From IMG/VR virus record IMGVR_UViG_2534681704_000008: 47,550 nucleotides of DNA; one strand, written 5' to 3'. Source of the DNA: a virus. Its lineage: Duplodnaviria; Heunggongvirae; Uroviricota; Caudoviricetes. Shown here in pieces: positions 1-45,563 of this stretch. Within the stretch, counting starts at the first letter, position 1. Every line of letters begins with the position of its first letter. The notes under the pieces are model-generated. The model saw only the letters and a program-made list of their open reading frames with translations. It was not told the origin of the DNA and ran no database searches. The position numbers and the translations under genes were made by a program.

Positions 1-669
1 ATGTGTGGACGCTTTGCCCAATCCCAAACGCGTGAAGATTACCTTGCGCTTCTCGCGGAAGATATTGAACGCGATATTCCCTATGATCCCGAACCCATTG
101 GCAGATACAACGTCGCGCCGGGAACCAAAGTTCTTCTGCTCAGTGAACGTGATGAACACCTTCATCTGGATCCGGTTTTCTGGGGATATGCTCCCGGATG
201 GTGGGATAAACCGCCGCTGATTAACGCCCGCGTAGAAACTGCGGCCACCAGTCGTATGTTTAAACCGCTCTGGCAACATGGTCGGGCAATCTGTTTTGCC
301 GATGGCTGGTTTGAGTGGAAAAAAGAAGGCGACAAAAAACAGCCTTATTTTATCTATCGTGCTGACGGACAACCTGTTTTTATGGCCGCGATAGGTAGCA
401 CACCGTTTGAGCGCGGTGACGAAGCCGAAGGATTTTTAATTGTCACTGCAGCAGCAGACCAGGGTCTGGTAGATATTCATGACCGCCGCCCGCTGGTACT
501 GTCGCCAGAAGCTGCGCGGGAATGGATGCGGCAAGAGATTGGCGGTAAAGAAGCATCAGAAATTGCTACCAACGGCTGTGTGCCAGCAAACCAGTTCACC
601 TGGCACCCGGTATCGCGCGCGGTAGGTAATGTCAAAAACCAGGGCGCGGAGTTAATTCAACCTGTTTGA
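1..669 (+). CDS. yedK: SOS response-associated peptidase YedK (SRAP/HMCES family)
   Basis: Complete 222-aa ORF starting MCGRF (Cys2 nucleophile after Met removal); length and sequence match E. coli YedK as recalled. Confidence 0.85.
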   Translation: MCGRFAQSQTREDYLALLAEDIERDIPYDPEPIGRYNVAPGTKVLLLSERDEHLHLDPVFWGYAPGWWDKPPLINARVETAATSRMFKPLWQHGRAICFADGWFEWKKEGDKKQPYFIYRADGQPVFMAAIGSTPFERGDEAEGFLIVTAAADQGLVDIHDRRPLVLSPEAAREWMRQEIGGKEASEIATNGCVPANQFTWHPVSRAVGNVKNQGAELIQPV

Positions 670-1185: not shown

Positions 1186-1222
1186 ACGAGTGCTGTTTTA
1201 TGCCCCATCCATGCCCCATCAC
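1186..1222. repeat. Degenerate third copy of the att core
   Basis: gagtgctgttttatgccccatccatgcccca shares a 17-bp identical block (gccccatccatgcccca, 1202-1218) with the att core; abuts the stop codon of the UmuD'-like gene. Confidence 0.45.
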
Positions 1223-1608
1223 ATCACCGGGCAGTCGTCGAACTCGCCAGAGCGAGCATCGTTGATGCTGTAGGTGATCACCCCAAACACCGGACGCGAT
1301 GTATCTGACACTTCGTCCTTCAAAGGTAACGGCTCCCTCCTTACATTTTCAGGGTTTTCCAGATAAGGCTGCGGATGCGTTCTGTAGCGCATGATCCTGA
1401 ACTCACCATCAACAGCGCAGACGAGCAGAGAACCGTCTTTCGGTGTTAGCGATGAATCGACGATGAGCATGGCGCCCTTCATGATTCCAGCGCGAAGGTA
1501 TGTCGCGCCAGCTATCATCATGTACGTGGCTGAAGGATGCGCGATAAGCCTCTTGTCGAGTGATATGCGATCTTCAACGTAGTCTGCTGCCGGGCTCGGG
1601 AATCCCAT
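1219..1608 (-). CDS. UmuD'-like protein (S24 peptidase fold, pre-truncated, catalytic dyad apparently substituted)
   Basis: 129 aa starting MGFPSPAADYVE, equivalent to UmuD' after Cys24-Gly25 autocleavage; aligns to UmuD through LIVDS/VDGEF/VFGV; GDSM replaced by GATY and VKKL by IMRY; GGAGGTG RBS; no in-frame start upstream before a stop. Confidence 0.7.
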   Translation of the reverse strand: MGFPSPAADYVEDRISLDKRLIAHPSATYMMIAGATYLRAGIMKGAMLIVDSSLTPKDGSLLVCAVDGEFRIMRYRTHPQPYLENPENVRREPLPLKDEVSDTSRPVFGVITYSINDARSGEFDDCPVM

Positions 1609-1721: not shown

Positions 1722-2084
1722 ATGTTAAAGTTATTCGCCAAGTACACATCAATAGGCATCATCAACACGCTCATCCATTGGGTTGTGTTCGCCATATGCA
1801 TCTACGCATTCCATACTGGTCAGGCGCTTGGCAATTTTGCCGGTTTTGTTGTCGCTGTATCATTCAGCTTCTTCGCAAATGCCAGATTCACCTTTAAGTC
1901 ATCAACCACGACCCTGCGTTACATGTTGTATGTCGGATTTATGGGCACGCTAAGCGCTGCGATTGGCTGGATTGCTGATAAGTCAGGCATGGCGCCTGTA
2001 GTCACGTTAATCGTGTTCTCCGCAATCAGTCTGGTTTGCGGTTTCATTTATTCAAAATTCATTGTCTTTAGGGATGCGAAATGA
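1722..2084 (+). CDS. gtrA: GtrA bactoprenol-glucose flippase
   Basis: 120 aa, [23 protein letters not shown], four predicted TM helices; overlaps gtrB start. Confidence 0.85.
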
Positions 2085-2998
2085 AAATTTCTCTGGTCGT
2101 TCCTGTCTTCAACGAAGAAGACGCGATACCTATTTTTTATAAAACTGTTCGGGAATTTGAAGGACTTCAGCAACATGAAGTTGAGATAGTCTTCATAAAT
2201 GACGGAAGCAAAGACGCGACAGAATCAATCATAAACACGCTGGCTATTGCCGATCCGCTTATTGTTCCTCTGTCTTTCACGCGCAACTTTGGCAAGGAAT
2301 CAGCACTCTTTGCCGGCCTTGACCATGCAACTGGTGAAGCGGTTATCCCTATTGACGTTGACTTGCAAGATCCCATAGAAGTCATCCCGCACCTGATTGA
2401 GAAGTGGCAGCAGGGTTCGGATATGGTTCTGGCTAAGCGCTCTGACCGCTCAACTGATAGCCGACTGAAGCGTAAGTCAGCTGAGTGGTTTTATAAGCTT
2501 CACAACAAAATAAGCAACCCGAAAATTGAAGAGAACGTAGGCGATTTCCGGCTTATGTCTCGCGAAGTTGTTGAAAACATCAAGCTCATGCCAGAACGTA
2601 ATCTATTCATGAAAGGTATCTTGAGCTGGGTTGGCGGCAGAGCAGACGTTGTTGAATACGCTCGCGCAGAACGCGTTGCGGGAAATACAAAATTCAACGG
2701 GTGGAAACTGTGGAACCTTGCCCTTGAGGGTATAACTAGCTTCTCAACATTCCCTCTGCGCGTATGGACGTACATAGGGCTTATCGTTGCTGGCATAGCG
2801 TTTATCTACGGCGCATGGATGATCATCGATACGCTGGCATTTGGTAATGCTGTGCGCGGATATCCATCTCTACTTGTCTCCATCCTGTTCCTTGGGGGAG
2901 TGCAACTTATTGGGATTGGCGTTCTTGGTGAATATATTGGAAGAATATATATCGAGTCTAAAAAGCGACCTAAATACATTCTAAGGAAGATGAAATGA
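2081..2998 (+). CDS. gtrB: GtrB bactoprenol glucosyltransferase (GT2)
   Basis: 305 aa; N-terminal GT2 signature ([11 protein letters not shown]...DGSKD...DVDLQDP) and C-terminal TM helices. Confidence 0.9.
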
Positions 2999-4557
2999 GT
3001 TCGCGTGTTGGATTAATATCAATCTTTATTGTGTTTTTATTGGTGTTAATAATTCAATTGTTAACACCATTTCACTCTGATGATTTCGGTTTTTATCTGA
3101 AAGGGTACTCATTCGAGACCCTGCATCATGTTTACATGACGTGGAGCGGAAGGCTGTTCTCCGATTTTACTGGAAGCCTTGTAATGTCCATCAAGGACAA
3201 AACAATAATTTCATTTATAAATGCATGTGCTTTTACATCGTTAATTGTCGTTTTAACAAAGCTACCGCTTGAAAACAAAAACAACTGGCCTGTTTTTATT
3301 CTGTTGTTCATGCTTTATTGGATCGACAACCCAAGTTTGAGCCAGACAAGCTTCTGGGTAGTAGGCTCTGCTAACTATCTATGGACTAATCTCTTAGCCT
3401 ATTCATGGTTATATCTTTACTTCAGGTATGGTTCAACTTCAGATGTAAAAATGAAAGCTTTGTTATTGCTAATGGCTTTCATAACAGGCATGACAACAGA
3501 GAATCTAAGCACTTCAATATTCGGTGTTTTGTTCCTCTACAATGCCTTAAATTTCTATATAGAACGAAAAATAAACTGGTTATCTGTTTCTCAAATGCTG
3601 TTGCTGCTTGCAGGTGTTGGGGTATTACTACTTGCTCCAGGTAACTTTGTGAGGTCATCATCTTGTTGTTTTGATTTTTATTCCCAGCCTCTGATTACAA
3701 GGATAACAAATCATTTCCCCGGTAAGTTCATATCAGAAATGATGGAGTACAAGCATGTTATTGTTCTAACTGTCATTTCAATTGGTTATGGGCTATATAA
3801 AAAGAAAGATATGACGTTACCATTACTTTTTGTAATTGGTGCAATAGCTTCAAACGCCATGCTGTTCGCCTCACCAACAAATACAGGTAGAGTGTTAAAC
3901 ACGGGGTTGGTAATGATGTTGGCATCTCTTTCCTTTGCTTTGAGTTCAATATCTGAATTCAAGGCAAGTAAATTTCTAATTTATGTTGCATCTATTTTAT
4001 CTTTGGTTCTTTTTGCTCAGTCGTATGCTAACAATTACCAAAGCATAAAGAGTGTGTTTGCTCAGGATCAGATCAGAACGCAGATGATAAAAGACGGGTA
4101 TGATGCCATTCCATACTTTTATCAAGGAAGCATAGAGAAAGAATCAGATAAGCTTGACATATTTTTTAATTCAAGCGCTATTTCTAAATTTTATGGAGCA
4201 ACAAAGGATGTTGGCTTAATCGATCTTCCTTTTGATTATTCTTTGATGACGCAACAAAAGACAAATATTAATGATAGCTATTTCATTAACTTCAGGAAGC
4301 TTGACGACGTATTCCTTTTTGAAGTATCAAACCCTGATGTTAAATTTGAAAACTATATTTTGTTTTTCAGATTAACAATGGATGATGGTAGCGTTGAGAA
4401 TCATGATTTCATACCTGTTCTACGTAATTATAAAGGACATTTGTATTTGAACTCATGGAAAGTTGATACAAAAGGTAAAGAAATAAAGTTATTCGAGATT
4501 GGATTCTACGATCCGGCACTTAAGAAAAATGTAAGGTCTGTCAGCGTCCCTATGTAA
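2995..4557 (+). CDS. gtrC: GtrC-type serotype-specific O-antigen glucosyltransferase (polytopic membrane protein)
   Basis: 520 aa, many TM segments, low GC, immediately downstream of and overlapping gtrAB. Confidence 0.65.
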
Positions 4558-25744: not shown

Positions 25745-25770
25745 GCAACAAAAAACCGCCAGTAGGCGGT
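25745..25770 (-). terminator. Intrinsic terminator directly after the DUF4145-like gene
   Basis: accgcc-agta-ggcggt hairpin next to the stop codon, followed on the minus strand by tttttgttgc. Confidence 0.55.
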
Positions 25771-26454
25771 TTATTTTGTTTGTTTTAATGCTTTTTTCTC
25801 AGCCGCTAAAGCGGTAATGGCGTCAATTCGTAGTTGCCTTTCATGCTTTTCAACATACCACTCTTGAATTAGAAGCTCGAGGAGGCCTATCAGCATCTCA
25901 GCTTCGTCTGGATCGACATCAACAATGACATTGATATCATTTTCCATATGAGCACCAATGTTGCCAATATTCCGAACAGCATCGATGGCTTTCCAAACAT
26001 TCGATTCAATCTGCCCCTCGATGGCTTTTATTTCGTCAACAAGTCTCGCGGGCTTAACATTCCAGACGTTCCTAATCATCCCTTGAAGACACCTGCGTGA
26101 CAAAGTTGCAGAAGCTTTAGGTGATAGATTTTTGATTAACACTGCCTCTTTATAGTCATCTAAAATCGGCTTCGGCACATAATCAGGAAACTGTTTATAA
26201 ATTCCATTTGGCCTATTAACCCACTGCTCGATTAAGTTGACCGGTCTGTAATAGCCACCTTCAAGTTTCGCAGTAGATACCTTCGATACGTATGTGAATT
26301 CTTTACATTCTTTGTTCGGGCAAACGTTGACCGAAGATTCAAAAGCCAAAACCCCGTACTTAGTGTCAGCTGCCACAGCGAAACTGTTATTTTTTTTCTC
26401 AATTGACTCGAAAACTGACAAGCGCCCACAAAAAGGGCATTCCCAAGATGACAT
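25771..26454 (-). CDS. Zinc-ribbon plus DUF4145-like (HEPN-superfamily) protein; candidate abortive-infection/defence gene
   Basis: 227 aa from MSSWECPFCG (ATG 26454, AAGGAGG RBS); CxxC...CxxxC ribbon; C-terminal AVRNIGNIGAH resembling the DUF4145/HEPN R...H signature; low GC; own AT-rich promoter and terminator. Confidence 0.55.
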   Translation of the reverse strand: MSSWECPFCGRLSVFESIEKKNNSFAVAADTKYGVLAFESSVNVCPNKECKEFTYVSKVSTAKLEGGYYRPVNLIEQWVNRPNGIYKQFPDYVPKPILDDYKEAVLIKNLSPKASATLSRRCLQGMIRNVWNVKPARLVDEIKAIEGQIESNVWKAIDAVRNIGNIGAHMENDINVIVDVDPDEAEMLIGLLELLIQEWYVEKHERQLRIDAITALAAEKKALKQTK

Positions 26455-26518
26455 GTAAACCTCCTTAGATTTAAGAAGGTTAATATATTGCAAAACATTA
26501 GAGTGTTAAACGTACAAA

Positions 26519-26980
26519 TTAATTCAAGCATTGCTCTTTAATGTAGTCCTGCAGATAGCCGACCTGCTTCGTCACTGTGACGATTCGCTCTCTGAGGGTG
26601 AAATAATCCCGTTCAGCGGAGTCAGTAAGTCTGGGGCCGGAAGCATCGCCCACGCCGCTGGCGCCGGCCGTTCCGTTCGCGGGACATCTGGCGTTGACGT
26701 GCAGCCCACACTTACCAGTGCTAACGCAACGCTGCAGATCTTCAAGCTGAGATTTCGCATCAGCTAATTCCTTAATGTATTTGGCATCCAGCGCAGCGAC
26801 ATCTCGCTGCCGGGTCTGCATGTCTTTGATGGTGGAGTTCGCCAGGCTGAGTTTCTCAGTGGCCTTATCGCGCTGTTCTTTGTAGTTGATGGCGTTGTCA
26901 CGGTAATGGTTAATCGCCCAGGCCATGGAAACCAGCAGGCAGATAACGACAGCGCAGATGATGGCTGTTGATCGGCTCAT
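26519..26980 (-). CDS. Rz: Rz-like i-spanin
   Basis: [24 protein letters not shown]-terminal TM anchor then coiled-coil periplasmic domain; ATGA overlap with the endolysin stop. Confidence 0.8.
26572..26760 (-). CDS. Rz1: Rz1-like o-spanin lipoprotein embedded in the +1 frame of Rz
   Basis: 62 aa, LVSVGC lipobox, Pro-rich, C-terminal [11 protein letters not shown] matches lambda Rz1. Confidence 0.75.
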
Positions 26981-27471
26981 TTCTGGCCCCACTCGCAAAC
27001 TTCACGCTCAATCTCGCGCCGGGTGATAAGCCCCTTCCACTGTTTGCCACCGGCAAACGTCCAGCGCTGCAGTTCTTTGCATGCCCCCGGCACGTCTCCG
27101 GCGTTCAGCTTCTTCAGCAGTGTGGAGCTGGCAAAAGCACCAGAGCCAACGTTATAGGTGAAGGAGTAAAGTGCGGCACGCGTAGGCTCAGGGATGCGAA
27201 CCTTGATCAGCGGGTCGATGGCGTTTGCCACCTTCCGCAGATCTGCCTTAAGCAGGTTGTCACACTCTTTGTCGGTGTAGCGGTGACCGCGGCGAATGTC
27301 GGATCCGGTGTGCCCATCGCAAACAGTCCAGACGCCGACCACATCCTGATAGGCGTAATAGCGCCGCCCTTCCAGCCCATCCGCATTGCCAAGCATTACT
27401 GCAGCAATGGTGATTGCTCCGGATCCGCCAACAATGGCACCCACCAGCTTATTCCTGAGTGTCGGGTTCAT
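26977..27471 (-). CDS. SAR endolysin (phage lysozyme, GH24)
   Basis: 164 aa; N-terminal Gly/Ala-rich SAR segment ([20 protein letters not shown]); catalytic E-x8-D-x5-T ([16 protein letters not shown]). Confidence 0.8.
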
Positions 27472-27673
27472 CTCGGCTCCTGCTGCGGCGGTTGTCTTCG
27501 CGGATCTTGAAATAGAGATTCGTCAGATACGTCAGTACGGCAATGATGATACCCACCAGCACGCCGATAGCGTTCCACTGCTCGGGGCTGTAGGCATTAA
27601 GCATGCCGTTTAGGATGCTCCCGGCTGAAGCGCCATAGGCAGCACCAGTGGTTATTTTTTCCATGCGATACAT
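27449..27673 (-). CDS. Class II holin (pinholin, S21-like) with dual-start motif
   Basis: 74 aa starting MYRMEK (two in-frame Met); C-terminus [17 protein letters not shown] matches S21. Confidence 0.8.
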
Positions 27674-27774
27674 GCTCTCACCTCGCGTAGTTAGCGGGTG
27701 CTGTGTGTGTTTGAAAAGGGTCAGGCCCTCGGGACGATTTAACAAGTAGGCGTGTCGATGATGGTTCCCGGAGC

Positions 27775-27804
27775 CTGAAATAAAAAACCCGGCGACAGGC
27801 CGGG
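27775..27804 (-). terminator. Intrinsic terminator in the late leader (tR'-like)
   Basis: cccggc-gacag-gccggg hairpin followed on the minus strand by ttttttatttcag, about 100 nt upstream of the holin start. Confidence 0.55.
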
Positions 27805-28079
27805 AAGATGAGGGTAAGGCAATGTCGGCTCTCTGGCCGAAGGGTCCCAGGTAGTGGGTTCTGTGTGTGGCGATCGGACTCGAACCGATACTCAGGTTCA
27901 GCATTAGCATCATGCCTGCCCTGCCGGATAACCGGTTGATGCGTTACTCTACCCATCTAACCCGCAAGCTGGAATTGAGTTACACCACAACGGATAGAGC
28001 ACTGAGCATTTCGTTGGCGCTCCATGCTGCTGCGTGGGCTGGGTTATGAGCCCTTCACGCCAATGCTCTTTCCTGTTGT

Positions 28080-28112
28080 GCAGATACAAAAAAGGCCGCT
28101 TTTGTGCGGCCT
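28080..28112 (-). terminator. Intrinsic terminator after the late cargo gene
   Basis: aggccgc-ttttgt-gcggcct hairpin followed on the minus strand by tttttgtatc. Confidence 0.55.
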
Positions 28113-28128
28113 CAGTTCATTCATAATA

Positions 28129-28485
28129 CTAATTATCTGGATTCCAGATGGTTTCATCCAACTCAAAAACTAGACACTTTTTAGATTTATCCAGATAAAA
28201 TTCTGCAGTTCTTGCTTCTTGATCTAAATAATCCCTATCTTTACAACCTTCGAAATACTGAACATCAACCTCAAACTCAAAAGAGCCAGCATTATCGCCT
28301 TTTTCATACCAGACTTCGGTCACCTCAAAGCTGTCTGATTGATAGCTATATCGTGGATCGCCACGATAATCAGCCATGACATAACCTTCAAAATAATGTG
28401 AATGCTGCTTTATAAGATCCCGAAATGCTGCTTCTGTATTTGAAAAATCATCAGGAATATAGATCTCATATCTTTTGGTGCCCAT
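28129..28485 (-). CDS. Hypothetical acidic protein; cargo gene between Q and the lysis cassette
   Basis: 118 aa from MGTKRYEIYIPDDF (ATG 28485; the longer ORF-track start at 28536 is GTG); AT-rich; flanked by terminators. Confidence 0.5.
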   Translation of the reverse strand: MGTKRYEIYIPDDFSNTEAAFRDLIKQHSHYFEGYVMADYRGDPRYSYQSDSFEVTEVWYEKGDNAGSFEFEVDVQYFEGCKDRDYLDQEARTAEFYLDKSKKCLVFELDETIWNPDN

Positions 28486-28622: not shown

Positions 28623-29312
28623 TTAATTGACTTTTGCAATACCCTGCTGCGAAAAAGTCGCCTTTTGTTGCGATCGTGTTCTCACAGCGCAGAGAAGAGA
28701 GTCGCTATCAAGCCGCTTAAAGATGGTGCACATGGCCCGCCAGTAATCGGCGTAGTTATGGCACCAGTTATCAGGTTTAACGCCGCACAGGGCCGCCAGG
28801 TCCTGATGCTGATATACATCCTTGCCTGCCAGCTCCGCTTTGACGTCCTGCGCCGCCAGCCAGATAAGTTTCTTCAGGCGCTCCATCGTCTTGCCGGCCA
28901 CCTTCTTCGTGCCGAGTTGCTCACGGAACTCTGCCCATGCCCACTGAGTTATCGCCACCTGATACTCGAAGCGGATGTTCTCGCTGTAGTTCCACAACAG
29001 CCATGCTTTCTGGTGGTCTTCAAGCGACAGGACGGCGCGGCGCCACGATGCGGTCACGAACTCAACCGGGCCCACCAGCGCAATGGATGAACCCTTGGCG
29101 CGTGACTGGCTGCCGCTCATCGGCGGGCCGTCCGGGTTGACCATGCGCTGCTTATCCTTGTCGAATACCTTTTTCCGGCCCCGACTGCGCGCCGTCGCGG
29201 TGAATTGCGCATTCTCGGCGAAGGCTACCAACTGCCCTTTCGTCGACCCGCTCAGATCTGCGGTCGCCACAATGAGCTGCTGACGTACGTATTCCAGTTG
29301 CTGACTGTTCAT
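28623..29312 (-). CDS. Late antitermination protein Q (assigned by position and size)
   Basis: 229 aa, located between rusA and the late/lysis region, Cys-containing C-terminus. Confidence 0.55.
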   Translation of the reverse strand: MNSQQLEYVRQQLIVATADLSGSTKGQLVAFAENAQFTATARSRGRKKVFDKDKQRMVNPDGPPMSGSQSRAKGSSIALVGPVEFVTASWRRAVLSLEDHQKAWLLWNYSENIRFEYQVAITQWAWAEFREQLGTKKVAGKTMERLKKLIWLAAQDVKAELAGKDVYQHQDLAALCGVKPDNWCHNYADYWRAMCTIFKRLDSDSLLCAVRTRSQQKATFSQQGIAKVN

Positions 29313-30871: not shown

Positions 30872-31273
30872 TTATTTCAATTCGTAGATGAGGCAATCAA
30901 CGATTTCAAGACCGTTCACCATAGAGTTAGTTAAACGAATCGTGCTATTGCTGATCCTAGAAAATCCTTTAAGCATCTTATATAGATAATCATTATCGCC
31001 TTTAGCTTCGATTGTATCCAAAGGGATTGGCTTGTACTTTTTCGAAACGCTATTTCTGTTTATGTCACTGATTTTCTTATAAACATATGCTGGCCCTCGT
31101 TCTTGAATTTCTTTTATTACCAACATATATCGCCATGATAGATCTGGATAATAGAACCACAATGCGGCATCAACAGTTAAATTCTCTGCTTTCAATTTTT
31201 TTAACAAAAATTGTCCGGAGAACTCCATGTCTTTAGTCAACTCCCTGCCGACTACCAGTGTGTTTTTAACCAT
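30872..31273 (-). CDS. Hypothetical protein, partner of the HEPN-like gene
   Basis: 133 aa, Lys-rich, very low GC; 22-nt overlap with the upstream gene. Confidence 0.5.
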   Translation of the reverse strand: MVKNTLVVGRELTKDMEFSGQFLLKKLKAENLTVDAALWFYYPDLSWRYMLVIKEIQERGPAYVYKKISDINRNSVSKKYKPIPLDTIEAKGDNDYLYKMLKGFSRISNSTIRLTNSMVNGLEIVDCLIYELK

Positions 31274-31668
31274 TTCAAAACTCCAGATTGTTGGTCACCT
31301 ACAGCATCAATAAGTTGTTCTGACAATGCTCTAGTTATGTTGGTATCGTAACGAAACTGCTCACTCCAGTCTTTCACGACAGTCCAGTTTATTTCTAACG
31401 ATGCATCATTTCTTGAGTCGGCAATCAACATTTGATGTAAGTTAGCGATCTTCAGAAGTTTCGATAAATCATGAGTGTAGGAATCGTTCACTGTGGTCTT
31501 GTTAGGGAATTCATGTTGCAAAAATGTCTTTGCAATACAAGCCTTGAGCGCACATTCCACAGCATAACCACAAAGATAATAGGCACCATGGTATAACCCA
31601 TTAGCAAATAAACATTTAGCTTCGTCAAATCTAATGGTAGACAAGGATTCAAGATCATTCTTAGTCAT
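31252..31668 (-). CDS. HEPN-like domain protein (candidate toxin/abortive-infection effector)
   Basis: 138 aa; N-terminal helix FDEAKCLFANGLYHGAYYLCGYAVECALKACIAK is HEPN-like; low GC; no canonical Rx4-6H seen. Confidence 0.5.
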   Translation of the reverse strand: MTKNDLESLSTIRFDEAKCLFANGLYHGAYYLCGYAVECALKACIAKTFLQHEFPNKTTVNDSYTHDLSKLLKIANLHQMLIADSRNDASLEINWTVVKDWSEQFRYDTNITRALSEQLIDAVGDQQSGVLKWLKTHW

Positions 31669-40165: not shown

Positions 40166-40329
40166 AAGCGTGGTCTCTCGAAGAGCTGGCGCTGCTGTGG
40201 CGACACTCAAACGCTGAAGTCGCAGAGATTACCGGCCGCAGTATTGATGAGGTCGGAGATAAGCGGCTGCAAACCAATATTGAGCGTAATGGCTGGGATG
40301 TAAACGATCCGGAACGGGAGGATGCATGA
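40162..40329 (+). CDS. Small hypothetical protein absent from the ORF track
   Basis: 55 aa ([25 protein letters not shown]...), ATGA overlaps at both ends. Confidence 0.45.
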   Translation: MKAWSLEELALLWRHSNAEVAEITGRSIDEVGDKRLQTNIERNGWDVNDPEREDA

Positions 40330-41387
40330 GCAAAGTAGGCGATTATTTCTTTGAGTTCCCGGCGTCGCGCGGCACGCAGGGTTGTACGGTGACTTACATG
40401 ATCACAGCACCTGCCCGCGCACTGACGCGCATACTTGCCTCCGACAATCACGGCAGCACGCTCGATCGTTCTCAACGCGAAATTAACCAGGCGCGAGTGA
40501 AGAAGTTTTACCAGTACCTCGTCAATGCATACCAAAATAAAGAGCCCTTCATCATCCCGCCACTGGTCGGCAACTGCGACGCGGATATTGAGTTTGAAGA
40601 GTTCGGCAATACGAATGTGGGCGTCGCACGCTTCCCTATGGATGCAGTGATCAAGCTGTTCGACGGCCAGCACCGCGCAGCCGGATTAGCTGAGTTCTGC
40701 CGGACTTACGGAGAGCCAATCAGCATCCCGCTGATGCTAACCCATAATCTCCCACTGAAGGCACGCCAGCAGTTCTTCTCCGATATCAATAACAACGTCT
40801 CGAAACCTTCCGCTGCGATCAACATGGCCTATGACGGGCGTAATGAAGTTGCACAGGGGATGGTGACGTTCCTGTCTCAGCACGACACCTTCGCAGAGGT
40901 GACAGACTTCGAGCACAACGTCGTACCGGCGAAAAGTAAGTTGTGGGTGAGCTTCAAGGCGCTTAGCGACGCGACGGCCAAGTTTGCCAACGCGGGCGGC
41001 AAGCCGCTGGAAATGGGCGACATCGAATCCATCTGGGAGGCCTGGTTGGCCCTGACGCAGATCGAAGCGATTCGCCACGGCACCAGCCAGGCAGACTACA
41101 AGCGCGACTACATTCAGTTCCACGCAGTGATGATTAACGCCTTCGGCTATGCCGTTCAGCGGCTGATGGCTGACCACTCAATCGTAGATATCGTCCAGAT
41201 GATTGAGGAACTGGCGAGCAGTGCGGGCTCCTCTGAGATGGAAGACTTCTTCCTGATTTCCCGGTGGGGTGGTGTCTGCGTGAATGCCGAAAAAGACCGT
41301 CCAACGGTCATTGCCTCCGTTCCGGCGCAGAAATCTGCTGCAGACCGTCTCGTCAAAGTTATCCTGGCGAAAAGCCTTGAGGAGTAG
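40326..41387 (+). CDS. DGQHR-domain protein (ParB/DndB-like superfamily)
   Basis: 353 aa with an exact FDGQHRAAG motif. Confidence 0.7.
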   Translation: MSKVGDYFFEFPASRGTQGCTVTYMITAPARALTRILASDNHGSTLDRSQREINQARVKKFYQYLVNAYQNKEPFIIPPLVGNCDADIEFEEFGNTNVGVARFPMDAVIKLFDGQHRAAGLAEFCRTYGEPISIPLMLTHNLPLKARQQFFSDINNNVSKPSAAINMAYDGRNEVAQGMVTFLSQHDTFAEVTDFEHNVVPAKSKLWVSFKALSDATAKFANAGGKPLEMGDIESIWEAWLALTQIEAIRHGTSQADYKRDYIQFHAVMINAFGYAVQRLMADHSIVDIVQMIEELASSAGSSEMEDFFLISRWGGVCVNAEKDRPTVIASVPAQKSAADRLVKVILAKSLEE

Positions 41388-43556: not shown

Positions 43557-43771
43557 CACCAGCAAATGAAAACGCCATCCGCGCGGCCTGCCGACGCTGC
43601 ACCGAAGAAATCCAGCAGGCCATGCGCAAGAAGCCAAAGCCTAACTGGAACGCAACGGTGCCTCCCATCATCAACAAGCATCACAAGAAAATTGAAGCTC
43701 TGGGAGTTAGCCTCCTGGAGTTCGTCGTATACACAGGGCGGCTTAATCGCCGCTTCGGAGTTGAATTGTGA
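43553..43771 (+). CDS. Hypothetical protein
   Basis: 72 aa, ATGA overlap with the methyltransferase stop. Confidence 0.45.
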   Translation: MTPANENAIRAACRRCTEEIQQAMRKKPKPNWNATVPPIINKHHKKIEALGVSLLEFVVYTGRLNRRFGVEL

Positions 43772-44304
43772 AGGTTGAAAAAAGCGATGTTCTGGCGTTT
43801 ACCATTTCAGATGTTGAACGTCTCGACCCTGTCAGGGTGATGATTGAAAACTATGAACCTGGTAAGGGTCGCATCACCATCACCTGCTTCGGTAAGGCCT
43901 GGACCGGCGCATGGTTTGCTATGGGCGGTGATACCGTGCAGGAGTTCATTAAGCACGTCAGCAATGAGTACCTTATAGGCTATTTCGACCCGCAACTGCA
44001 AAGCACGGTGGATGATGATAACGACGCCAACCTTGAATTCGTCAAAGGTGAGATCATCAAACTCCGGCGCCAGCAGGAAATCGATGCTGATGATGCCAGG
44101 GAAATGTGGGATGAGGCTGAAGATGCTGAAGATGTGAAGGCGAGCTGCTGCAACTATCTCGTCGGCGACAAGTTGCTTAACCTGCTGGGTGATGACCCAT
44201 GGTACGCAAAATGGCCGTCTGTGCCGAACCATCATTATCAGTACCTCGAACGCATCATTGATGCAGTGCGCGGTGGGCTCGCAGAACTGGAGCGTGCTGC
44301 ATGA
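43768..44304 (+). CDS. Hypothetical acidic protein
   Basis: 178 aa, tiled in the operon. Confidence 0.5.
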   Translation: MKVEKSDVLAFTISDVERLDPVRVMIENYEPGKGRITITCFGKAWTGAWFAMGGDTVQEFIKHVSNEYLIGYFDPQLQSTVDDDNDANLEFVKGEIIKLRRQQEIDADDAREMWDEAEDAEDVKASCCNYLVGDKLLNLLGDDPWYAKWPSVPNHHYQYLERIIDAVRGGLAELERAA

Positions 44305-45236: not shown

Positions 45237-45563
45237 ATGGAGCAATACGAAACCGGTTCATCACTTCAGTTACGCAACCTTATTCGCCAACGCCACGCTG
45301 AATGGTCAGAAAAGACCTTCGGCAATGTCGGCCCCATTGGACCGCTGAAGCACCTTTCCAAAGAGGCGCTGGAAGCTGCAGCCGATCCTGGCGACCTCAG
45401 CGAGTGGGCTGATATGCAGTTCCTGCTATGGGACGCGCAGCGGCGCGCCGGTATCACCGATGAGCAAATCACCGCGGCGCTGGAAGAAAAGCTGAAGGTG
45501 AACATGACCCGCCACTGGCCGGAACCGAAAGACGGTGAGCCGCGTCTTCACATCAAACCATGA
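45237..45563 (+). CDS. DUF550-like protein
   Basis: 108 aa, AGAGGG RBS, MQFLLWDAQRRAGITDEQI; followed by a terminator-like hairpin plus T-run near 45622-45650. Confidence 0.55.
   Translation: MEQYETGSSLQLRNLIRQRHAEWSEKTFGNVGPIGPLKHLSKEALEAAADPGDLSEWADMQFLLWDAQRRAGITDEQITAALEEKLKVNMTRHWPEPKDGEPRLHIKP

Follow-up and report, generated by a model that had tools for sequence, protein, structure and literature searches.

The window analysed here is a 47,550-nucleotide stretch of Caudoviricetes DNA, and its lysis cassette consists of four open reading frames on the minus strand, S, R, Rz and Rz1, which fill positions 26519-27673 exactly from the Rz stop codon to Met1 of S. All four are present as the initial annotation had described them, with R beginning 23 nt before S ends and the ATG of Rz overlapping the stop codon of R by 4 nt (ATGA). 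The gene order, the overlaps and the ribosome-binding sites are those of phage phi80 and of the K-12 prophage DLP12. PHROGs assigns the four products, in the order given, to holin, endolysin, Rz-like spanin and Rz-like spanin, and all of their Pfam scores are far above the curated cut-offs; in sequence terms, a four-gene cassette of this kind is far beyond chance.

Coordinates of the lysis genes and associated features in the window
Feature	Position	Strand	Basis
S, class II (S21-type) holin, 74 aa from Met1	27449..27673	-	ORF, Pfam, PHROG
S from Met4, 71 aa, presumed active pinholin form	27449..27664	-	second in-frame ATG at 27664
Shine-Dalgarno GAGGTGA, serving the S start codons	27678..27684	-	read in the 25 nt preceding the start codon
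R, GH24 lysozyme, SAR-endolysin type, 164 aa	26977..27471	-	PF00959, PDB matches
SAR segment codons of R, residues 9-27, preceded by R6 and K8	27391..27447	-	hydropathy, R21 alignment
Rz, inner-membrane i-spanin, 153 aa	26519..26980	-	PF03245, PHROG 13
Rz1, predicted outer-membrane lipoprotein (o-spanin), 62 aa, embedded in Rz +1 frame	26572..26760	-	PF06085, PHROG 3198
Intrinsic-terminator-like hairpin, CCCGGC...GCCGGG then T run	27788..27804	-	about 115 nt upstream of S
Q gene	28623-29312		PF06323, 3.4e-81

S matches the Pfam family ‘Bacteriophage P21 holin S' (PF04971; 89.4 bits, 1.5e-25, cut-off 26) over profile positions 1-62 of 64, as well as the PHROG 20 holins (3.4e-28), and shares 54–57% identity with S21-type holins, DLP12 EssD among them. 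Its frame runs from an ATG at 27673 to a stop at 27449 and opens with M1-Y2-R3-M4; together with the second ATG at 27664, this bears out the description of S as an S21-like holin with a dual-start MYRM motif. An M-x-x-M start is common to all 56 distinct S21-type holins that we recovered, and in 55 the intervening residues include K or R. The 74-residue product is presumed to be the antiholin, with Arg3 in its N-terminal extension. An RNA hairpin of the sdi type governing the choice between Met1 and Met4 was considered and rejected, as the region 27630-27720 (minus strand) folds at -19.8 kcal/mol with a z-score of only -0.16 against shuffled sequences.

Hydrophobicity was scored with the Kyte-Doolittle scale and with the summed Hessa-2005 scale, and the sequence-based topology obtained in this way fits the two-TMD plan of class II holins. 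TMD1 (residues 7-25) is weak, with a Hessa sum of +6.45 that is nearly that of EssD TMD1 (+6.46) and a 63% content of Gly, Ala, Ser and Thr; TMD2 (residues 35-53) is strongly hydrophobic (-0.06, EssD +1.01) and is followed by a charged C-terminal tail of 19 residues. TMD2 presents a small-xxx-small face, G37xxxG41xxxA45, in the same register as the GxxxSxxxG of S21-type holins. GxxxGxxxA is found in 42 distinct relatives and GxxxSxxxG in 13. A glycine-zipper motif in TMD2 of S21 has been reported in the literature, the form studied being GxxxSxxxG, from which the phi80-type GxxxGxxxA differs.

R is recognized by PF00959 (148.1 bits, 2e-43) and, over residues 1-164 in both cases, by the structures of RrrD (4ZPU, 4.9e-64) and the phage 21 SAR endolysin (3HDE, 3.7e-63). 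Because these crystal-structure matches are full-length and 60% identical, the fold of R can be regarded as settled. The catalytic triad E34/D43/T49 aligns with the corresponding residues of R21 and RrrD and has the spacing E-X8-D-X5-T by which the motif is defined in the literature.

The N-terminal SAR segment that the initial annotation attributed to R is also upheld, since the alignment with the phage 21 enzyme and RrrD runs from end to end and places the N-terminal segment of R on the SAR domain of R21. Lack of a SAR or TM segment had been named as the observation that would count against it; the hydropathy scales find the segment, at residues 9-27 (L9-L27), as the sole hydrophobic segment of the protein, with a Kyte-Doolittle 17-residue maximum of 2.0 and a Hessa sum of +0.83 kcal/mol, where the best window elsewhere in R reaches +6.9 and the SAR segment of RrrD +0.78. 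SAR endolysins are defined in the literature by two to three basic N-terminal residues followed by a charge-free, weakly hydrophobic TMD, their SAR domains are described as rich in Gly, Ala, Ser and Thr, and release by the pinholin is considered the definitive test. The segment of R is uncharged, and 10 of its 19 residues (53%) are Gly, Ala, Ser or Thr. It ends in G28-N29-A30, which formally fits the -3/-1 rule of signal peptidase.

Cysteines are found in R only at positions 51, 70, 131 and 159, a pattern like that of RrrD (52, 71, 132 and 160), and the SAR segment itself has none. Enzymes of the R21 type, with no SAR cysteine, are reportedly controlled by refolding, and P1 Lyz by disulfide caging; the Cys-free segment of R fits the former and not the latter.

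Rz aligns with positions 1-125 of the 126 in PF03245 (141.8 bits, 1.7e-41) and with PHROG 13 (2.6e-68). With a Hessa sum of -2.69, its N-terminal TMD (residues 5-23) is, on this scale, a true anchor. Rz1 matches PF06085 (58.1 bits, 7e-16, cut-off 27.9) and PHROG 3198 (1.9e-21). Its start lies 220 nt past that of Rz (220 mod 3 = 1) and its whole length is contained in Rz, from 0.476 L to 0.885 L of Rz length L, so that full embedding in the +1 frame, as originally proposed, is confirmed; embedded o-spanins in the literature start at about 0.4-0.5 L and end at about 0.9-1 L. The embedded frame is kept in 76 of 80 IMG/VR relatives, and the remaining 4 have a broken Rz.

Rz1 departs from lambda Rz1 at positions that are sensitive to mutation, reading RPAPA for PPPPP, lacking Cys29 and opening its lipobox with a serine. 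The lipobox is S-V-G-C20 with Thr at +2, its first-position Ser being outside the strict [LVI][ASTVI][GAS]C; SVGC is shared by 64 of 76 relatives, and o-spanins with deviant lipoboxes have been documented. The mature protein has 43 residues, 8 of them Pro, and the equivalent of the penta-proline stretch, reported to be conserved across the lambda o-spanin family except for P34, reads R-P-A-P-A within ERPAPAAW, identically in 57 of 76 relatives. No periplasmic cysteine is present in Rz1 of any of the 76 relatives. Rz has four, at 85, 91, 99 and 151, a set retained in 72 of 80 relatives. Spanin function is reported to require at least one homotypic intermolecular disulfide, formed by C152 of lambda Rz or C29 of Rz1; C151 of Rz aligns with C152 of RzpD and would be the residue to form it.

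To judge from their sequences, all four lysis genes are intact and conserved. The cassette proteins are 100% identical in two independent assemblies, and an identical R was examined on 24 contigs. Values of dN/dS for S and R fall between 0.03 and 0.11 in 14 of 15 comparisons (0.03-0.11 for R), the exception being S against phi80, which rests on only 7 substitutions; such ratios indicate strong purifying selection on both genes. We surveyed holin-endolysin pairing in about 100 related loci (32 genome loci and 80 viral loci). In both sets, wherever an S21-type holin is directly followed by an intact endolysin, the N-terminus of that endolysin is hydrophobic. Endolysins without a hydrophobic N-terminus occur at five loci, one with a non-S21 holin, which is accompanied by a lambda-R-like enzyme, and four with no recognised holin ORF. 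Comparative evidence thus favours the earlier statement that the holin and endolysin are a functionally matched pair, in that S21-type holins always occur with N-terminally hydrophobic endolysins at the loci where the downstream endolysin is intact.

The surrounding prophage had been thought to show signs of decay, a view that we reject. Scanning about 45 ORFs against PHROG and Pfam turned up each of the modules to be expected, mostly as near full-length profile matches: integrase, methyltransferases, RecT/exonuclease, cI, cII, O, P, NinB, RusA, Q, TerS and TerL, and also the genes for portal, head, tail, tape measure and fibre. As read from its gene content, the prophage is probably inducible and lytic, and not decayed. 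A few early-region ORFs (43768-44304, 45237-45563) match only part of longer profiles, which is weak evidence of decay and typical of mosaic genes. Holin S is identical in Enterobacter sichuanensis, with 99% copies in other Enterobacter genomes, and the host is probably Enterobacter; an origin in E. coli was rejected, as E. coli yields no match better than about 91% identity.

Between Q and S lie three terminator-like hairpins, of which the one listed in the table is the last, and an inserted ORF of 118 aa. RNA polymerase modified by Q presumably transcribes past the last hairpin. tRNA genes in this interval, as found in Stx phages, were also considered and rejected: ARAGORN detected none in the window, Rfam none at E<=10 on a 450-nt stretch, and none is annotated there in similar phage DNA. 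A T-arm-like string, GGTTCGAGTCCGATCGCCA, occurs near 27865-27883 and is at most a tRNA fragment.

We consider it very probable that the four genes form the lysis cassette in the late operon of a lambdoid prophage that appears complete and whose host is probably Enterobacter, and that the cassette most likely follows the pinholin-SAR endolysin-spanin pathway of phage 21 and phi80. The features of the genes are given by sequence and homology; it is from the phage 21 and lambda literature that we infer the steps of the pathway, pinhole formation, pinhole size and SAR release among them. After Q antitermination, R would be exported by Sec and remain inactive and anchored in the inner membrane, while the 71-residue form of S would build up in the membrane and the 74-residue form would delay triggering. 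At a set time TMD1 of S would exit the bilayer and TMD2 would oligomerise via its G37xxxG41xxxA45 face into small pinholes, collapsing the proton-motive force; pinholins are characterized in the literature by heptameric pinholes of about 2 nm that depolarise the membrane but are closed to soluble endolysin. The SAR segment of R would then exit the membrane, allowing the enzyme to refold and cleave peptidoglycan, and the Rz-Rz1 complex would finally fuse the inner and outer membranes, its dimers probably being formed via the Rz cysteines alone.

Three other readings were weighed. The cassette might be intact yet a silent relic that is unused for phage release, as in DLP12, where an intact S21-type cassette (essD-rrrD-rzpD-rzoD) persists in a defective prophage. 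The decay perceived in the initial annotation would accord with this, as would the three hairpins and inserted ORF that part Q from S and a tRNA-like fragment upstream of S where no tRNA is detectable. However, the presence of all prophage modules with near full-length profile matches and the strong purifying selection both speak for a gene set in use, and the viable phage phi80 likewise has terminators between pR' and S, which makes a relic very unlikely.

The remaining two readings concern the membrane proteins themselves. Were the N-terminus of R a signal peptide that is cleaved, or a signal anchor that stays in place, rather than a SAR domain, secretion of R would not depend on the holin or the enzyme would never be freed, and S would serve only as a timer or some other depolariser. 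The G-N-A that follows the segment is compatible with cleavage under the -3/-1 rule, and there is a precedent in the literature, the proposed SAR domain of T4 RI having proved to be a cleavable signal peptide. Yet R shares 60% identity along its entire length with R21 and RrrD, the enzymes whose N-termini set the pattern for SAR domains, its segment has a SAR-like composition (53% Gly, Ala, Ser and Thr) and a hydrophobic core of 19 residues that we judge long for a cleaved signal peptide, and N-termini of this type are strictly paired with S21-type holins; we therefore hold this reading to be highly improbable. Least probable of the three is that S, for all its homology to S21, makes large holes as a canonical holin does, accompanied by a SAR endolysin that simply has no need of a large hole. 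It would draw on the GxxxGxxxA zipper in place of the GxxxSxxxG of S21, on a 3-residue deletion that shortens TMD1 or the loop, and on the fact that we found no experiments on the phi80-type allele in the literature, where the phi80 holin and endolysin appeared only in family listings. Against it, S is 54–57% identical to S21-type holins with the same two-TMD plan and TMD1 hydrophobicity, its small-xxx-small face lies in the S21 register, and across about 100 loci it is partnered only by endolysins with a hydrophobic N-terminus.

The pinholin pathway that we favour belongs to a system that is already known: the cassette is of the ordinary phi80/P21 type, textbook material, as the initial annotation had recognized. 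The result confirms a complete, selectively maintained pinholin/SAR-endolysin/spanin module in a prophage and matters little outside annotation, although it adds a data point to the known rule that S21-type holins travel with SAR endolysins. With phage 21 (S21/R21/Rz/Rz1) and DLP12 the cassette shares the Pfam families, a dual start with a basic residue, a weak TMD1, a Cys-free SAR segment, the E-X8-D-X5-T motif and an Rz1 embedded in the +1 frame, at identities of 54–57% (S), 60% (R), 60% (Rz) and 55% (Rz1). It differs from them in the 3-residue deletion after TMD1 of S, a C-terminal tail that is 6 residues longer, GxxxGxxxA for GxxxSxxxG, an Rz1 without Cys29 and the proline run, and two extra periplasmic cysteines in Rz.

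What the spanin half has in common with lambda Rz/Rz1 is a type II inner-membrane Rz, a proline-rich predicted lipoprotein Rz1 embedded in the +1 frame, a C-terminal 11-residue motif and Rz cysteines equivalent to C99 and C152; it differs in a lipobox (SVGC) outside the consensus, in R-P-A-P-A for the penta-proline, and in having no periplasmic cysteine on mature Rz1 and four on Rz. On an evenly balanced judgement, it would represent a widespread lambda-family Rz/Rz1 allele group, undescribed as far as we found in the literature, with all periplasmic cysteines on the i-spanin (C85, C91, C99 and C151) and none on the o-spanin, RPAPA and a Ser-initial lipobox, and, if functional, tolerating a division of features between the subunits other than that implied by lambda genetics. 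Its conservation suggests that the group is functional. If so, spanin dimerisation and membrane fusion would tolerate a different split of Cys, Pro and lipobox features between the two subunits, and an allele without Rz1 Cys29 and the penta-proline would be a possible natural test case for the rules of spanin structure and function.

The closest phage is phi80 (genes 18, 19, Rz and Rz1; NC_021190), which shares the gene order, the 23-nt S/R and 4-nt R/Rz overlaps, the MYRM start, the SAR segment and the GxxxGxxxA of TMD2, and has annotated terminators between pR' and S. S is 92% identical to its phi80 counterpart and R 97.6% (gp19), whereas Rz (68%) and Rz1 (50%) are more distant. DNA identity drops from >0.9 to about 0.65 at around 26800-26740, that is, at the Rz1 start, inside Rz. 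Beyond this point the sequence, as aligned, is a different spanin allele: the phi80 Rz1 is an o-spanin of the HK97 family, whereas Rz1 here has its best phage matches in the lambda family, among them ES18 and the Stx phages. The joint is a further data point for the known rule that lambdoid lysis cassettes are mosaics with intragenic recombination joints. On either side of the cassette, neither the Q gene nor the spacer between Q and S is related to that of phi80, and the gene after Rz is DUF4145/PD-T7-4-like, where phi80 has rha.

The interval 26519-27673 consists of four overlapping minus-strand genes, those of a holin (S), an endolysin (R), an i-spanin (Rz) and an o-spanin (Rz1), and the ends of these ORFs show that the limits drawn for a lysis cassette in the initial annotation are exact. 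All four proteins exceed the curated Pfam thresholds by a wide margin, and PHROGs classifies S as a holin, R as an endolysin and both Rz and Rz1 as Rz-like spanins. S opens with ATG-TAT-CGC-ATG (M-Y-R-M), which places a second in-frame start at 27664. R, with AGGAG ahead of its start, overlaps S by 23 nt, and its stop is in turn overlapped by the Rz ATG (ATGA). Rz1, a lipoprotein gene, starts 220 nt past the Rz start, hence in the +1 frame, and ends within Rz (0.48-0.89 of its length), confirming that it is embedded as first described. The cassette is already-known biology, with the spanin allele and a neighbouring defence-like gene as minor points.

Features of the lysis cassette, its flanks and other regions of the prophage
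Feature	Coordinates	Strand	Length	Match
S	27673 (ATG) to 27449 (stop)	-	74 aa	PF04971, Bacteriophage P21 holin S; E 1.5e-25; 89.4 bits (cut-off 26)
R	27471 to 26977	-	164 aa	PF00959, phage lysozyme; E 2e-43; 148.1 bits
Rz	26980 to 26519	-	153 aa	PF03245, Rz lysis protein; E 1.7e-41; 141.8 bits
Rz1	26760 to 26572	-	62 aa	PF06085, Rz1 lipoprotein precursor; E 7e-16; 58.1 bits (cut-off 27.9)
Shine-Dalgarno GAGGTGA upstream of S	27678-27684	-		
Q antiterminator, upstream of cassette	28623-29312			PF06323, 3.4e-81
Terminator-like hairpins between Q and S (three)	28555-28530, 28113-28092, 27804-27788	transcribed strand		
ORF of low GC (about 0.45)	28129-28485	-	118 aa	phrog_13663
DUF4145 gene	25771-26493	-	227-240 aa	Pfam 1.5e-9; PADLOC PD-T7-4 6e-13; phrog_1305
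Promoter-like site of DUF4145 gene	26509-26482			
Bidirectional terminator	25753-25772			
SRAP peptidase gene	1-669			
S24 peptidase-like ORF	1219-1608			
gtrABC-like operon	1722-4557	+		GtrA; family-2 glycosyltransferase (GtrB-like); DUF6056 membrane protein (GtrC-like)
HEPN-domain gene pair, nin region	30872-31668	-	138 and 133 aa	138 aa: Pfam 4.3e-6, PADLOC PDC-M28A 1.9e-8; 133 aa: phrog_5760
DndB-like gene, early left	40326-41387	+		Pfam 1e-46; PADLOC DndB 1.3e-39
Early-region ORF	43768-44304	+		PHROG profile, 105-281 of 287
Early-region ORF	45237-45563	+		PHROG profile, 279-376 of 385

The description of S as an S21-like holin with a dual start holds in its Pfam match, in the M-Y-R-M opening and across its relatives. 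An M-x-x-M start occurs in all 56 distinct relatives, with Arg or Lys between the Mets in 55, in agreement with the 71/68 antiholin logic of S21; an RNA hairpin controlling start choice in S found no support (fold z = -0.16). TMD1 (residues 7-25; 63% G/A/S/T) has a Hessa 2005 sum, here a simple addition of scale values, of +6.45, essentially equal to the +6.46 of EssD, the holin of the K-12 prophage DLP12, and TMD2 (residues 35-53) is firmly hydrophobic (-0.06). S is 54-57% identical to S21-type proteins, from which it differs by a 3-residue deletion past TMD1 and a longer charged tail. Whereas S21-type holins carry GxxxSxxxG in TMD2, S has G37xxxG41xxxA45 in the same register; GxxxGxxxA is found in 42 of the 56 relatives and GxxxSxxxG in 13, and the glycine zipper of S21 TMD2 has been implicated in pinhole assembly.

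Alignments of R with K-12 RrrD, the DLP12 endolysin (4ZPU; 4.9e-64), and with the lysozyme of phage 21 (3HDE; 3.7e-63) cover its full 164 residues, the N-terminal segment among them; R21 is the paradigm SAR endolysin. These alignments place the catalytic triad, defined in the literature as E-X8-D-X5-T, at E34, D43 and T49. The SAR or transmembrane segment that the initial reading required of the endolysin is present by hydrophobicity and by alignment with R21 and RrrD: basic R6 and K8 are followed by L9-L27, the sole hydrophobic segment in R (Kyte-Doolittle 17-residue maximum 2.0), of whose 19 residues 10 are Gly, Ala, Ser or Thr. Its Hessa sum is +0.83 kcal/mol, and no other window in R scores better than +6.9; the RrrD segment gives +0.78 and the genuine membrane anchor of Rz -2.69. 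G-N-A directly after the segment is formally compatible with a -3/-1 cleavage site, and we describe the segment as SAR-like, since a SAR domain, an anchor that stays uncleaved and a signal peptide that is cleaved off look alike at the sequence level. Lacking Cys, the segment resembles the R21 type of SAR endolysin and not the disulfide-caged type of P1 Lyz.

That holin and endolysin form a matched pair was borne out comparatively. Among 32 loci recovered with the holin query from species-representative genomes, every locus with an intact downstream endolysin encodes a hydrophobic endolysin N-terminus (17-residue maximum 1.8-2.3), and in 64 of 80 IMG/VR loci recovered with Rz an S21-type holin can be recognised alongside an endolysin whose N-terminus is hydrophobic. 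The hydrophobic segment is missing from the endolysin in five of the 80, one of which has a non-S21 holin (L083, with a lambda-R-like enzyme) and four no recognised holin ORF. Purifying selection acts on both genes: in comparisons with seven to eight relatives (dS up to 2), dN/dS ranges from 0.04 to 0.09 in S and from 0.03 to 0.11 in R, the single exception being S versus phi80, where a value of 0.39 rests on just 7 substitutions. Of the 80 relatives, 76 keep an intact embedded Rz1 ORF, and Rz itself is interrupted in the remaining four. We examined 24 contigs with an identical endolysin; all four proteins are 100% identical in NCBI assembly GCA_043291985.1 and one Logan assembly. Since Enterobacter sichuanensis has S at 100% identity and the best E. 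coli matches reach only about 91%, the host is probably Enterobacter, not E. coli; other genomes of Enterobacter and those of Lelliottia, Klebsiella and Raoultella carry S at 93-99% identity.

The layout of a pinholin, a SAR endolysin and embedded Rz/Rz1 is thus confirmed, and sequence and homology support the reading; its mechanism is carried over from the phage 21 and lambda literature. By that analogy, Sec would export R, which would stay tethered and inactive while the S product from Met4 (S71) builds up, the product from Met1 (S74) acting as antiholin. TMD1 of S would exit and heptameric TMD2 pinholes would collapse the proton-motive force; R would be released and refold, and Rz-Rz1 would fuse the two membranes.

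The spanins represent a conserved sub-allele within a known family, the sole mildly non-textbook point. Unlike its lambda and DLP12 counterparts, Rz1 has a lipobox, S-V-G-C, whose first position falls outside the L/V/I of the o-spanin consensus, and it has no periplasmic cysteine and thus no equivalent of Cys29. R-P-A-P-A stands at the site of the lambda penta-proline stretch, reported to be mutation-sensitive and, except for P34, conserved in the lambda o-spanin family, and a second run reads P-A-P rather than the P-P-P of lambda and DLP12 Rz1. Rz carries periplasmic cysteines at four positions (85, 91, 99, 151), compared with two in DLP12 RzpD (99, 152); given that either Rz C152 or Rz1 C29 is enough for lambda spanin function, Rz C151 would suffice here. 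None of this is local damage, as the 80 relatives show, among which 59 different Rz1 and 71 different Rz sequences occur: SVGC is found in 64, ERPAPAAW in 57 and the absence of an extra Cys in all of 76 Rz1 relatives, and the four-Cys pattern in 72 of 80 Rz.

The closest isolated phage is phi80, with the same gene overlaps and a holin and endolysin 92% and 97.6% identical. DNA identity to phi80 is at least 0.9 across S and its immediate upstream region, R and the first third of Rz, but falls to about 0.65 at 26800-26740, precisely at the Rz1 start, and Rz and Rz1 are consequently only 68% and 50% identical to their phi80 counterparts. phi80 has an Rz1 of the HK97 o-spanin family, whereas the best phage matches of our Rz1 are of the lambda family (ES18 and Stx phages, 54-58%; Klebsiella prophage-derived phages, 72%). 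This drop and these differing affinities indicate a recombinant cassette, in which a phi80-type S-R-5'Rz continues into the 3' half of a different spanin, with the joint falling within Rz where Rz1 starts (26519-26800, -; related loci L037-L116). Several close relatives of the holin-endolysin pair (L005, L006, L015, L018) have no more than the first ~40 Rz codons in common with it, followed by a different, shorter 125-aa ORF, and in some loci (L008, L091) R and Rz are separated by an additional small lipoprotein-like ORF.

Terminator-like hairpins separate Q from S, as annotated terminators separate pR' from S in phi80. The first two flank the 118-aa ORF inserted between Q and the holin gene, which has no Pfam or PADLOC match and is also present in identical contigs L002 and L003. 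By eye, TGaTATTGT, located ~30 nt past the Q stop, is a candidate extended -10-like string; no confident pR' was found. The 27690-28090 spacer upstream of the holin contains a tRNA T-arm/acceptor-like string, GGTTCGAGTCCGATCGCCA (~27865-27883, -), where neither ARAGORN nor Rfam (E<=10) detected a tRNA; some lambdoid phages carry tRNA genes between Q and lysis or stx genes, of which it may be a remnant. Downstream of Rz we found no terminator but a promoter-like site, that of the low-GC DUF4145 gene, which directly follows Rz in the slot occupied by rha in phi80 and bor in DLP12. Its product has two N-terminal CxxC pairs, zinc-ribbon-like by eye, ahead of the DUF4145 domain, and the gene is probably a defence moron, also readable from the late operon by readthrough. 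The bidirectional terminator and the terminase genes follow.

The suggestion that the prophage otherwise shows decay was not confirmed, because the lambdoid prophage is apparently complete: it has genes for integrase, two methyltransferases, a DndB-like protein, RecT/exonuclease, cI, cII, O, P, Ren, NinB, RusA, Q, lysis, TerS, TerL, portal, head, tail, tape measure, a J-like protein and a fibre, together with a gtrABC-like operon. The only hint of decay seen was two early-region ORFs matching only C-terminal parts of longer PHROG profiles, which could be truncated genes or, equally, mosaic domain genes. The gtrABC-like operon, very low in GC (0.36-0.45), adjoins the tail-fibre gene, with the SRAP and S24 peptidase-like ORFs to its left, and is probably O-antigen-modifying (serotype-converting) cargo. 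The HEPN pair and the DndB-like gene with its two adjoining DNA methyltransferases are candidate defence or anti-defence cargo.
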